Origin: Escherichia coli
GTDB taxonomy: Bacteria; Pseudomonadota; Gammaproteobacteria; Enterobacterales; Enterobacteriaceae
DNA length: 1,842 nucleotides
Assembly: GCF_044324875.1 (NCBI RefSeq)
Contig: NZ_CP172193.1
Direction: 5' to 3' (one strand)
Below, in pieces: positions 1 through 1,842 of this stretch (position 1 is the stretch's first letter; each line of letters starts with the position of its first letter). A program made the translations under genes and the position numbers. The notes beneath the pieces were generated by a model. It saw only the letters and a list, made by a program, of their open reading frames with translations, was not told where the DNA came from and searched no databases.

Positions 1-113
1 ATACGAAACGTTATTTGCATGTGTATACGCAAACATGTTTGCGTGTGTTGTTTCGTACTGTACGATATAAATTTCGTAAGGTACGAAAGATTGTTGCAGG
101 TAAGGATGCAAGT
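1..113 (+). promoter_or_regulatory. Palindrome-dense leader / operator-like region upstream of ORF1 (possible autoregulatory operator or iteron-like Rep binding sites)
   Basis: Seen directly: 18-bp perfect palindrome acgcaaacatgtttgcgt at 27-44; 13-bp palindrome tcgtac-t-gtacga at 53-65; inverted repeat tttcgta-agg-tacgaaa at 72-88. The half-site TACGAAA / TTTCGTA recurs at 2-8, 51-57, 72-78 and 82-88. A TATAAA-like element lies at 66-71. Function is inferred from position immediately 5' of the ORF1 start. Confidence 0.5.
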
Positions 114-638
114 ATGCTGGAACAGCGATTTGAAGACTTTGAACAGCAAAAACGGCGAGATCACAAGGCACAAGATCAAGCCCAAAACACTAAGCAAAAA
201 CGAGATCGGTTGAATCCACCTGACTGGTCACAAGTCACTAAGGCTGGTTGGAATATGTTGGACGCTATATCCGAGAAGGTTCCTAGGGCATTTAGGCTAT
301 ATTCTTTTTTTGCTCAAAATATAGATAAATCGTGTGGAGCTGTTGTATGTGATCAAAAATTCCTAGCTGATTATTTCGGGGTTAGTTTAAGGACAATTCA
401 ATATTGGATCGGAGATTTAGAACGTATTGGTGCAATAGTAAAAATACCAGTAGGTATTTATTATGCTTATGCTTTAGATCCTTATCAGGTATGGCGTGGA
501 TATAATAAATCTAAAAAATATGCAGCATTTAACGCAAAAACATTAACTCAAAAAGATGGTGTTATTGATCGTAAGTTGCGGCTCATGCTCTCTAGAAGAG
601 AAGATTTTGAAAGCTCACTCAAGCCCTCTAAATCATGA
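114..638 (+). CDS. Winged-helix (HTH_36/RepL-like) DNA-binding protein; candidate plasmid replication initiator or replication-associated regulator (~175 aa)
   Basis: Six-frame ORF 15..638. Start reassigned to ATG 114 because AAGGA at 102-106 sits 7 nt upstream, whereas ATG 15 has no Shine-Dalgarno and its first 33 codons overlap the palindrome array and encode an atypical Cys/Arg/Val-rich peptide. Stop TGA 636-638. Motif FLADYFGVSLRTIQYWIGDLERIGAI (nt ~360-437) fits the recognition-helix pattern of HTH_36-type winged helices found in small-plasmid Rep proteins. N-terminus is a charged low-complexity stretch (EQRFEDFEQQKRRDHKAQDQAQ). AT-rich codon usage. Family assignment is from recall, not a search. 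Confidence 0.65.
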   Translation: MLEQRFEDFEQQKRRDHKAQDQAQNTKQKRDRLNPPDWSQVTKAGWNMLDAISEKVPRAFRLYSFFAQNIDKSCGAVVCDQKFLADYFGVSLRTIQYWIGDLERIGAIVKIPVGIYYAYALDPYQVWRGYNKSKKYAAFNAKTLTQKDGVIDRKLRLMLSRREDFESSLKPSKS

Positions 639-656
639 CTAGTCTTGGAGGTCTAG

Positions 657-875
657 ATGAATACTGAAGATAAGCTAATGCTAAAAGTTGATCGATTACT
701 TAGTCATGATGCGTTAAATCAACGCAATATTTTAAATAATTGGGAAAGACAATTTTTAACAAGTGTTTTAGCTATCTATAGGAGGATCAATAAATATTCT
801 TTAGTTGGGCTATCACCAAAACAGAAAAATGCAACGTATAACATTTTAAAAAAATATAAATTTCATACTGATTAA
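657..875 (+). CDS. Hypothetical small basic protein (72 aa), co-transcribed with ORF1
   Basis: Strong RBS GGAGG at 647-651 with 5-nt spacer to ATG 657; stop TAA 873-875. Only 18 nt separate it from the ORF1 stop, same strand and same AT-rich composition. No Cys or His, Lys/Asn-rich, no recognisable catalytic motif. The tail FLTSVLAIY...LSPKQKNATYNILKKYK loosely resembles, from memory only, C-terminal segments of some plasmid Rep proteins. Confidence 0.55.
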   Translation: MNTEDKLMLKVDRLLSHDALNQRNILNNWERQFLTSVLAIYRRINKYSLVGLSPKQKNATYNILKKYKFHTD

Positions 876-919
876 AAGTGAAATATTTTAAAGAGCCAGC
901 GGCAGGGGGACAATCGGAT

Positions 920-955
920 TCAAATGTTAACATTTGACATCGGATTATCTATCCT
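920..955 (+). promoter_or_regulatory. Candidate sigma70 promoter (-35 TTAACA 927-932, 17-bp spacer, -10 TATCCT 950-955) overlapping an 18-bp perfect palindrome (920-937)
   Basis: Seen directly: tcaaatgttaacatttga at 920-937 is a perfect palindrome. TTAACA and TATCCT are separated by exactly 17 bp. A TTGACA hexamer at 934-939 has no well-spaced -10. The element sits exactly at the AT-rich/GC-rich junction and points into the structured GC-rich block. Promoter activity is inference. Confidence 0.3.
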
Positions 956-1063
956 GCATTGCTCTTTTGCCGCCTCAAAATCCCTTGCGTGTTTTTGCTC
1001 CCCGATCTCCAGAACGACCGAGCCGCCACGGTTCCGGCAGCGCCTTGAGCGCAACCGGAAACC

Positions 1064-1083
1064 GTCTGGGGAGAACCCCAGAC
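1064..1083. other. Perfect hairpin: 8-bp GC-rich stem (gtctgggg / ccccagac) with AGAA loop
   Basis: Seen directly: 1064-1071 is the exact reverse complement of 1076-1083. Not followed by a T-run on either strand, so not a canonical intrinsic terminator. An imperfect longer stem (acggttccgg 1028-1037 / ccggaaaccgt 1053-1063) lies just upstream. Consistent with a structured RNA or DNA element. Confidence 0.4.
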
Positions 1084-1379
1084 CCCCATCGCTGTAACAC
1101 CGACGGTCTACGACCACCTACCAACCGCGTGACTGTCTGTTTCGTGCAAATGGGCTTTGCAGGGGGCTGGCGCGGTTCCTGGCGACCTGAAAGCCCCTGG
1201 TTAGGGGTATCGGCGCGCCTGACCTCCTGAGAGCCTCTGTAAGCGTTTTTCGCGCCTTCCATGCCCTGGCGGGCATCTAAAACCCGTTTCGTGCGTCTGA
1301 GAGCTTTTGAGCGCGTTTGAGGGGCTATCTGGCGACTCATCCCCGAAAGAACAACAACGGGATCACCGACAACATGCGA

Positions 1380-1447
1380 GAGGTGATCCCGCTCGCCGCA
1401 AGTCGATGACCGAGCGTAGCGAGCGAATCGACGAGGAAGCGGAAGAG
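1380..1447 (+). other. ColE1/pMB1-family conserved origin-proximal segment (region between oriV and bom; possibly the primosome assembly site region)
   Basis: Hand alignment of 1380-1447 (gaggtgatcccgctcgccgcaagtcgatgaccgagcgtagcgagcgaatcgacgaggaagcggaagag) with the pBR322/pUC sequence gagctgataccgctcgccgcagccgaacgaccgagcgcagcgagtcagtgagcgaggaagcggaagag (recalled from memory) gives about 53/68 identities with no gaps. Orientation and distance to the bom homology match ColE1-type plasmids. The primosome-site assignment is inference. Confidence 0.6.
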
Positions 1448-1483
1448 AACCGGAAGCCACATTGAGCACTTACGCACTGATGC

Positions 1484-1508
1484 GGGGTGTCGGGGTGAAG
1501 CCCTGACC
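1484..1508. repeat. Left arm of a 25-bp inverted repeat (23/25 match to the reverse complement of 1711-1735)
   Basis: Seen directly: ggggtgtcggggtgaagccctgacc at 1484-1508 versus the reverse complement of 1711-1735, ggggtgtcggggcgcagccctgacc. Arms are about 200 bp apart and bracket the predicted nic region. Confidence 0.8.
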
Positions 1509-1513
1509 AGGTG

Positions 1514-1551
1514 GTAATCGTATCGGCGTGCGTGCGCGGTCATACGATTAC
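1514..1551. other. Hairpin with 10-bp perfect stem (gtaatcgtat / atacgattac) and 18-nt GC-rich loop, inside the oriT region
   Basis: Seen directly: 1514-1523 is the exact reverse complement of 1542-1551. Lies between the two arms of the 25-bp inverted repeat. Function unknown; possibly an accessory protein binding site or single-strand initiation structure. Confidence 0.4.
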
Positions 1552-1672
1552 ACATCCTGTCCCGATTTCTGAGGCGTTTTAACGGTGAACGGACGGCAAA
1601 AACACGATAGAGCTGTTGAACGTGAAAACCACGAAATCTGGCAAAAATCACGGCTGGCGAGGCTTGCAGAGG

Positions 1673-1735
1673 AGTAAGCCAGTATACACTCCGCTATCGC
1701 TACGTGACTGGGTCAGGGCTGCGCCCCGACACCCC
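1673..1735. other. ColE1/pMB1-type oriT (bom) nic region; predicted nic on the minus strand within CTGG/CTTA (between + strand positions 1678 and 1679)
   Basis: ccagtatacactccgctatcgctacgtgactgggtcagggctgcgccccgacaccc (1679-1734) differs at a single position from the pBR322 bom sequence recalled from memory (complement strand ...tcatggctg... versus ...tcagggctg... here). The preceding taag gives the CTGGCTTA nic octamer on the minus strand. The nic position is recalled from the ColE1 MbeA literature and is approximate. Confidence 0.75.
1711..1735. repeat. Right arm of the 25-bp inverted repeat (partner of 1484-1508); corresponds to the canonical bom inverted-repeat arm
   Basis: Seen directly (see partner feature). 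This arm is the copy that matches the pBR322 bom sequence; the left arm is the extra inverted copy. Confidence 0.8.
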
Positions 1736-1842
1736 AAATGCTCGATAAACACGTTAAACCTTGTGCAACAAAAAAGTGCTTTGATAGATCTTTAGAGCAA
1801 AAATCAACATTTCGATTAATATCAATGACTTATGACACCATC

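Follow-up and report, generated by a model that had tools for sequence, protein, structure and literature searches.

A 1.8-kb Col(MG828)-type cryptic plasmid of Escherichia coli as a probable recombinant mosaic of a Rep-dependent replicon and a non-coding arc with three putative transfer origins

The window analysed here is a stretch of 1,842 bases from Escherichia coli (contig NZ_CP172193.1), and it is an entire circular cryptic plasmid of the Col(MG828) type, made of two arcs that would evolve and recombine separately. Over its full length it is 99.0% identical to the circular E. coli plasmid NZ_CP070127.1 (1,843 bp, typed as Col(MG828) and 'mobilizable'), and a second circular record, of 1,865 bp, is 97.4% identical to it. 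Given this full-length match to a complete circular record, the window is the whole plasmid, with position 1842 joining position 1. Its nearest relatives are typed Col(MG828) by MOB-suite. The arcs, and the features that we assign to each of them, are the following:

1739-1842 plus 1-892: arc A, guanine-plus-cytosine (GC) content 0.35, with a putative control and origin region, rep and ORF72.
1739-1842: AT-rich end of the window (GC 0.33), which continues around the circle into 1-113, with a match to the IHF consensus at 1820-1832 (TATCAATGACTTA).
1-113: DNA preceding rep, in which four copies of TACGAAA/TTTCGTA lie around a perfect palindrome of 18 bp (ACGCAAACATGTTTGCGT, 27-44).
114-638, plus strand: rep, preceded by the ribosome-binding site AAGGA 7 nt before the start codon; its product of 174 aa is a predicted winged-helix initiator from the RepL / pKL1-RepA-like group.
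657-875, plus strand: open reading frame ORF72, a small orphan gene that has a GGAGG ribosome-binding site and occupies the segment of lowest GC (0.27).
893-1738: arc B, GC 0.57, a non-coding module that is shared with, and seems to move whole or in pieces among, small RepL-type plasmids.
908-959, plus strand: homolog of an IncX4-type origin of transfer (oriT), an inverted repeat with arms of about 20 bp centred on the palindrome 920-937, followed by the MOBP nick motif TATCCTGC (950-957).
1005-1388, plus strand: conserved, hairpin-dense GC-rich core, whose most conserved blocks are 1043-1092 and 1143-1292.
1389-1447, plus strand: primosome-assembly-like site (phiX174-type n' pas / ssiA) with the motif GAAGCGGAAGAG, 83% identical to ColE1 1309-1367.
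1483-1568, plus strand: homolog of an IncI-complex (IncK2/Z-like) oriT, with a 25-bp GC element at 1484-1508, an inverted repeat at 1514-1523/1542-1551 and CATCCTGT at 1553-1560.
1675-1734, minus strand: nic-proximal part of a ColE1-type oriT (bom), 60/60 identical to ColE1 1462-1521.

The two arcs differ sharply in composition. The best circular split with two breakpoints delimits a GC-rich arc at 969-1735, with a GC of 0.589 against 0.351 for the rest and a log-likelihood ratio of 51 (200 shuffles averaged 4.8 and never exceeded 10.5). By module, GC is 0.35 over 1-892 plus 1739-1842 and 0.57-0.59 over 893-1738. A first-pass annotation of the same DNA, made by eye, had described such a contrast between an AT-rich and a GC-rich part, and the computed GC profile bears it out. 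The same goes for the A/T-ending codons it had seen in the AT-rich part (GC at third codon positions is 0.26 in rep and 0.19 in ORF72), for the dense secondary structure of the GC-rich part (folding z-scores of its single-stranded DNA against shuffles are -6.2 for the plus strand and -3.5 for the minus strand) and for the winged-helix protein, to which Pfam, AlphaFold and Foldseek all point. A second composition boundary lies at 1735-1738 and the last 104 bases are AT-rich, joining position 1 on the circle; hence the plasmid has two arcs, not two halves. The 18-bp perfect palindrome that had been placed at the switch, around 880-920, does exist (TCAAATGTTAACATTTGA), but it sits at 920-937 and is not the junction, since the homology boundary of the shared GC-arc module is at 893, 27 bp before the palindrome, and the rise in GC comes after it, at about 940-970. 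We propose that the high GC of arc B reflects stacked stem-loop sites and not a GC-rich donor genome.

When the two parts were searched separately, region 1-900 matched 171 plasmid records and region 900-1842 more than 5,000, so that their nearest relatives are indeed different. Relatives share 1-640, 893-1738 or 893-1842, and the breakpoints of homology, 640, 893 and 1738, are the composition boundaries. The tail 1739-1842 is conserved only among RepL-type relatives (39 records, 82-100%). Besides, the phylogenies of the arcs disagree. In the GC arc, certain 1.5-kb plasmids are 96% identical to the window, with a Rep at only 42%, and they are closer to it in this arc than its own Rep relatives and pMG828-1 (90%), while the monomer of record L022 differs from the window at 2 positions in arc A (99.8% identical) and at about 66 in arc B (about 92%). 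The core, here taken as 1005-1475, accompanies five Rep lineages, with 93, 43, 24, 18 and 14% identity to the Rep of the window. Regarding the Col(MG828) small cryptic plasmids as a group (pMG828-1, NC_008486; NZ_CP070127.1), they share the size class of the window, with rep at 90-99.9% nucleotide identity and the GC-rich arc at 90-98%. According to these comparisons the plasmid is a recombinant mosaic, and with alternative partners at hand for each arc the chimeric origin suggested in the first-pass annotation stands. What does not stand is a Rep module foreign to its backbone, given that all the small plasmids with the GC core that we fetched have a RepL-type Rep or, in one case (L010), a small protein placed and aligned like one. 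We also considered the GC core as a Rep-independent origin, on the grounds that a 2,255-bp relative (L008) seemed to have no Rep, and discarded the idea, as identical records annotate RepL in the unannotated stretch of L008.

The GC-rich part had been credited with ColE1/pMB1 backbone homology and described as a ColE1-type oriT/origin segment. In a BLAST comparison with ColE1, only 1675-1734 (60 bp, 100%) and 1389-1447 (59 bp, 83%) matched and nothing else did, so the homology is confined to these two pieces; the ColE1-type oriT is present and the origin is not. An Rfam scan found no RNAI in the window at E <= 1, whereas the ColE1 positive control scored 73.8 bits, and a permissive search of the window with ColE1 600-1310 (RNAI, RNAII and origin) gave at best 19.7 bits, the level of shuffled sequences (mean 20.0, maximum 25.4). 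The only other outcome of the Rfam scan was a chance-level fragment of a group II intron (E = 0.45). The plasmid has no ColE1 replication origin. Its likeness to ColE1/pMB1 lies in the 60 bp of bom and the ssiA-like site, in the order and orientation that they have downstream of the ColE1 origin; it differs in having no RNAI, RNAII, origin, rom or mob genes and in encoding its own initiator.

The first-pass annotation had missed two further oriTs in the GC arc, of IncX4 and IncI/K type. The palindrome 920-937 is predicted to be the centre of the IncX4-type oriT hairpin. The IncX4 plasmid pFS170G contains two counterparts of window 908-967, in inverted orientation and 95-96% identical to it: one (29564-29617, 96%) is located 51 bp upstream of taxA-taxC and the other (1311-1370, 95%) just downstream of rep and an adjacent hypothetical gene. 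Two oriTs in long inverted repeats, near taxC and near rep, are a hallmark of IncX plasmids (PMC3402527, PMC3332091), and the duplication has been noted too in 10.1101/2024.01.30.577996. With oriT alpha and beta of the R6K family, described in the first two of these papers, the window shares the inverted repeat followed by TATCCTGC, and the positions match in IncX4. Unlike IncX plasmids, it has a single copy of this oriT and no TaxA/TaxC in cis. The MOBP nick consensus (C/T)ATCCTG(C/T), or YATCCTGY (PMC3772185), occurs exactly twice in the window, as TATCCTGC and CATCCTGT, both times on the plus strand and just 3' of an inverted repeat; 0.10 occurrences are expected and 0 of 200 shuffles reached 2. 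The predicted nick of the IncX4-type oriT falls between 956 and 957 on the plus strand, and homology to an IncX1 plasmid starts at 957, the base after it.

The hairpin itself seems to be exchanged as a cassette. Ten variants from small and IncX4 plasmids all have the flanks GGACAATC and GATTGTCTATCCTGCAT and differ in the inner 26-28 bases, with compensatory changes at 7 of the 17 pairs. Paired cells amount to 92.9%, against 78.6% in shuffles and 30-44% in slid controls, the covariation score is 0.371 against 0.132, and 0 of 500 shuffles reached either the covariation or the pairing value. The palindrome variant of the 1,822-bp relatives is 94.5% identical to another IncX4 plasmid, directly upstream of ddp1(taxA)-taxC. 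Between the window and L001, which are 99% identical, there are 23 differing columns, mostly within 915-947, a 33-bp cassette, and the difference looks like a swap of the inner palindrome alone. Other roles were considered for this palindrome. It was discarded as a Rep operator because its variants do not track Rep: near-identical Reps come with different palindromes and distant Reps with the same one. As a Xer/cer site, an ARG box or a Ter site it showed no fit by eye to the consensus sequences, and these candidates were dropped after the homology to the IncX4 oriT was found. A 37-bp piece of the IncX4-type element (window 925-961, 97%) also lies at 301-337 of L014, which represents the Col(BS512)-type 2.1-kb plasmids, a family unrelated to the window that encodes a 321-aa 'protein rep'; pieces of this oriT therefore seem to circulate beyond RepL-type plasmids.

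Regarding the IncI-type oriT, 1483-1568 is 93% identical over 86 bp to intergenic DNA directly upstream of nikA-like and relaxase genes in an IncK2/Z plasmid and 83% identical to DNA upstream of the annotated nikA-nikB of an IncI-gamma/K1 plasmid, and about 1,900 conjugative plasmids match it. Its nick would lie between 1559 and 1560 on the plus strand. The 1,822-bp relatives have no IncI-type oriT, and MOB-suite types them as non-mobilizable. The ColE1-type oriT has the opposite orientation to the other two; its nick is presumably at about 1678/1679 on the minus strand, judging from the bom sequence of pBR322/ColE1. Its distal 25 bp (1711-1735) are an inverted copy of 1484-1508 (92% complementary), so that the IncI-type and ColE1-type oriTs both end distally in one 25-bp GC-rich element (GGGGTGTCGGGG..GCCCTGACC), which is found also in an IncX1 plasmid. 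As the 1,822-bp relatives lack 1491-1572, one endpoint of that deletion lies inside the left copy, 1484-1508. Among the plasmids matching each module, conjugative records number only between a few hundred and about 1,900, and those inspected belong to the IncX and IncI types; an F-type oriT such as that of pEC156 was not apparent in them, no dedicated comparison with the F oriT having been run.

Arc B appears to encode no protein. We rejected the coding potential of its long open reading frames, 934-1230 (plus), 1307-1465 (plus) and 975-1469 (minus), as substitutions in them show no codon periodicity (p = 0.58-0.96). The 'hypothetical proteins' annotated in related GC arcs (525-815 and 892-1050 of L004) correspond to frames like 934-1230 and 1307-1465 and are, for the same reason, probably spurious. 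The core 1005-1388 matches no Rfam family; about 545 plasmids cover at least 80% of it. In IncX4 plasmids, pNORD1_2 and an Arsenophonus plasmid, sub-blocks of the core are found again at a distance of about 400-700 bp from rep genes, and window 957-1510 is collinear in an IncX1 plasmid. Its putative role would be single-strand priming or leading-region processing. Next to it, 1389-1447 resembles a PriA-type primosome assembly site. AAGCGG is the hallmark of such sites, and this segment would be the exact equivalent of ssiA. Its blocks CCGCTCGCCGCA, GACCGA and CGAGGAAGCGGAA are invariant in all the aligned plasmids (small plasmids, IncX4 and pNORD1_2), while the intervening stem varies, and its ColE1 counterpart, 1309-1367, lies between the ColE1 origin region and the ColE1 oriT. 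In ColE1, ssiA is located just downstream of the RNA/DNA switch and serves lagging-strand priming (PMC3167613).

Arc A carries the only two credible genes outside the non-coding arc. Rep is identical to WP_045145680.1, which NCBI's pipeline named RepL in L001. It gives a weak match to the Pfam family RepL (PF05732; i-Evalue 2e-4, 21.3 bits, residues 48-142) and none in NCBIfam, and it is 42% identical (E = 3e-41) to a helix-turn-helix protein of abundant 1.5-kb plasmids. In the AlphaFold model, the core of Rep (residues 43-121) is ordered helix-strand-helix-helix-strand-strand, with a predicted local distance difference test score (pLDDT) of 74-92, and Foldseek matches it to winged-helix proteins of the ArsR/SmtB type with a probability of about 1.0 but an E of about 5e-3; the core is thus predicted to be a winged helix. 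ORF72 belongs to no family in Pfam, NCBIfam or PHROG. It has only 7 homologs, all in E. coli plasmids or metagenome contigs and each just downstream of a small rep-like gene, and its model, of three helices (pLDDT 84.6), gave no significant fold match. It is present in only three PLSDB records, and at its position (657-875) pMG828-1 and the 1,822-bp relatives have unrelated DNA.

Upstream of rep, inverted repeats were detected in 1-113, and the four copies of TACGAAA/TTTCGTA (2-8, 51-57, 72-78 and 82-88) compare with 0.05 expected; 0 of 2,000 shuffles reached four. These copies are putative Rep-binding sites, and region 1-113 is probably the rep promoter or an origin. The oriV of pKL1 is reported to lie upstream of rep and to combine Rep-binding sites with an IHF box and a perfect inverted repeat of 16 bp (PMC3832669), and the window resembles pKL1, as described there, in the putative origin upstream of rep, the IHF box and the perfect inverted repeat. 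Since the IHF-like site, the palindrome and the TACGAAA copies parallel that arrangement, we tentatively place the vegetative origin and the control of rep at 1739-1842 plus 1-113. The 1.5-kb pKL1-like plasmids (e.g. NZ_CP075678.1) have a homologous winged-helix Rep and the same layout of a gene followed by a GC arc; they differ from the window in their highly diverged Rep, in having no ORF72 and in carrying another variant of the IncX-type palindrome. The palindromes 27-44 and 920-937 share an AACAT/ATGTT core in opposite arrangements (CAAACATGTTTG and AAATGTTAACATTT). There is also a weaker copy of the second one at 1798-1812, inside the putative origin region, which may be a coincidence.

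Taken as a whole, we consider it likely that arc A is a Rep-dependent replicon and arc B a cassette of cis-acting sites, with three oriTs and a priming site, that is mobilised in trans. The two genes match no relaxase family in Pfam, NCBIfam or PHROGs, and no mating-pair-formation gene was found either, hence the proposal of mobilisation in trans. Arc A would replicate the plasmid through its own initiator, and arc B would offer landing sites for the relaxosomes of other plasmids, the matching oriT being nicked by TaxA/TaxC of a co-resident IncX4 plasmid, by NikA/NikB of an IncI-complex plasmid, or by ColE1-type Mbe proteins with the help of a conjugative plasmid. From both MOBP-type oriTs the plus strand would be transferred, a polarity that follows from the predicted nicks. 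This is the strand that carries the pas-like site and folds most strongly, so we propose that the transferred strand brings its own priming signal, which would help it become duplex in the recipient; the same site could also prime lagging-strand synthesis in vegetative replication. As for the mechanism of recombination, we infer that the mosaic arises by exchange of arc B, and even of the inner oriT hairpin arms of about 30 bp, among small plasmids and helpers. A bolder extension, which we offer only tentatively, is that of a hitchhiking cassette that can be retuned, an oriT array whose specificity arms of about 30 bp are swapped with those of helpers, possibly by relaxases acting at nic, with 1005-1447 as a shared leading-region priming element. 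If so, a plasmid of 1.8 kb would stay matched to the IncX4 or IncI sublineage that happens to live in its host.

There are precedents for such a lifestyle. The relaxase-less plasmids pEC156, pKPN2 and pSe-Kan, with R64-type or F-type oriTs, have been mobilised experimentally (PMC4743918, PMC9282650). A pOriT class has been described, in a study which states that about 88% of the oriT-bearing E. coli plasmids have a single oriT and that multiple oriTs usually accompany multiple relaxases (PMC10123127). Like these pOriT or hitcher plasmids, the window has no relaxase that we could find, and each of its oriTs has homologs in helper plasmids that are conjugative or mobilizable; a small plasmid with both an F and an R64 oriT is also known in this class. 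It differs from the others in having three oriT types (R6K/IncX-like, R64/IncI-like and ColE1-like) on 1.8 kb and in being a Rep-dependent and not a ColE1-like replicon. On this evidence the plasmid looks like a hitchhiker of a known class and of a known plasmid group, and what seems notable in it is the combination of three oriT types on 1.8 kb with the cassette-like exchange of oriT hairpin arms.

Several points weigh against this interpretation. All three oriT assignments rest on homology and position. To our knowledge, the IncX4 oriT has not been experimentally mapped at these coordinates, and we found no experimentally defined IncX4 oriT coordinates in the literature; moreover, the stem of the IncX4-type hairpin contains one mismatch in the window, which reads GATTATC instead of the GATTGTC seen in relatives. 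The ColE1-type oriT may be incomplete, as only its nic-proximal 60 bp are present. IncI plasmids supply their own primase during transfer, and the pas-like site may therefore be unneeded for that route. In larger plasmids the core 1005-1388, nearly half of arc B, lies beside rep genes and not beside oriTs, which suits a role in replication at least as well as one in transfer. The vegetative origin is placed solely by analogy with pKL1, which the 1.5-kb plasmids resemble in size and layout. Finally, we found no published description of this plasmid, and the literature that we searched on the anatomy of Col(MG828) and pKL1 yielded passing mentions only.

One could argue that arc B, or its part 1005-1447, serves chiefly in replication and is required in cis by RepL-type replicons, as a single-strand or lagging-strand origin that turns the displaced plus strand into duplex, with the oriTs as secondary passengers. 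We regard this as a serious alternative, if a somewhat unlikely one, and it is compatible with mobilisation in trans, as the two are not exclusive. The core in small plasmids always comes with a small RepL-type Rep or Rep candidate, the pas-like site and rep are both on the plus strand, which folds more strongly than the minus strand, and the role of ssiA in ColE1 is lagging-strand priming (PMC3167613). The sub-blocks of the core or of the pas near rep in IncX4, pNORD1_2 and Arsenophonus plasmids fit it too, and in pNORD1_2 two copies of the pas flank RepA and point outwards. Against it, the core comes right after the predicted IncX-type nick in the window, and it does so in the collinear IncX1 plasmid too, as a leading region would. 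Also, nicking for rolling-circle replication is unexpected from a winged-helix Rep without nuclease motifs.

The model of the first-pass annotation, in which a foreign rep or cargo module had recombined into a ColE1-type backbone that supplied the oriT as well as an RNA-primed origin needing no Rep, accounts for the mosaic and for the oriT and pas-type segments in ColE1 order and orientation, but we now find it very improbable: neither RNAI nor anything above shuffle level for ColE1 600-1310 was detected, most of arc B has no ColE1 counterpart and its closest relatives among large plasmids are IncX and IncI, and every small carrier of arc B that was fetched, L008 included, has a RepL-type Rep or, in L010, a similar protein. 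We also see little prospect for a further view, in which the contrast in composition would express functional constraint within one long-associated lineage, with no recombination of foreign modules. An AT-rich Rep followed by a GC-rich arc is indeed the layout of all the related small plasmids, L008 included, oriT segments are GC-rich in helper plasmids too, and constraint probably does explain why arc B is GC-rich. Such a lineage is at odds with the disagreement between the arcs (arc B 96% with Rep 42%; arc A 99.8% with arc B about 92%), with the 33-bp cassette and with the replacement of ORF72 by unrelated DNA. The idea that two unrelated molecules were joined during assembly to give the window deserves next to no credence. 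Two related records (L005, a 2,544-bp linear hybrid, and L022, a 5,537-bp trimer) do look like assembly products, but two complete circular plasmids of 1,843 and 1,865 bp, recorded independently in different countries and from different hosts, match the window over its full length, and at least 80% of it is found in 16 complete E. coli genomes.

Col(MG828)-type plasmids are very common and usually dismissed as cryptic. Pieces of this one are present in 1,313 of 5,426 complete E. coli genomes, and the Col(MG828) type has been linked to clades of sequence type 131 (PMC6949217). That nearly half of the plasmid appears to be an array of oriTs matched to IncX4, IncI/K and ColE1 plasmids gives a testable account of its spread. 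Plasmids of the IncX4 and I-complex groups carry resistance genes such as mcr-1, which is found on pFS170G, so the small plasmids would be tied to helpers that spread them. With respect to typing, the MOB-suite label Col(MG828) covers L004, L008, L009 and L010, whose Reps differ (43%, 18% and 14% identity to that of the window), and L004 shares only the GC arc with pMG828-1. As the label spans different Reps, its marker is probably in the shared non-coding arc and not in rep, and the label should not be taken as a replicon type.

Some of the matching records merit a comment. NZ_CP090002.1 (1,822 bp), labelled Staphylococcus aureus, is essentially identical to the 1,822-bp Col(MG828) plasmids of E. 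coli, and its label most likely reflects contamination or mislabelling and not the real host; a Corynebacterium record is also among the matching plasmids. L022 (CP164390.1, 5,537 bp) is a head-to-tail trimer of the plasmid type of the window, with three rep-ORF72 units, and multiple copies are present as well in NZ_CP019270.1 (7,475 bp, in 4 places) and NZ_CP146569.1 (3,631 bp, in 2 places). These three are either true multimers or concatemer artefacts of long reads; no Xer/cer-like resolution site was recognised in the window. L005 (NZ_CP069986.1, 2,544 bp, linear) links an arc with RepL and ORF72 of the window type to a rep of the 1.5-kb-plasmid type through the shared GC arc, and the record ends with a second copy of the beginning of the GC arc; either recombination in the shared arc has produced a true cointegrate, or two co-resident plasmids were wrongly joined. 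L020, a metagenome scaffold of 7.8 kb, looks like a larger composite of the modules of the window: the GC core occurs in it twice, along with a RepL-like gene, a NikA-like gene beside an R64-type oriT, and an ORF72 homolog (80% identical) downstream of a 179-aa rep-like gene. Lastly, positions 64-136 (minus strand) of L008, upstream of its first gene, gave a sub-threshold Rfam match to the SymR antitoxin RNA (37 bits, against a gathering score of 61; E = 7e-4).

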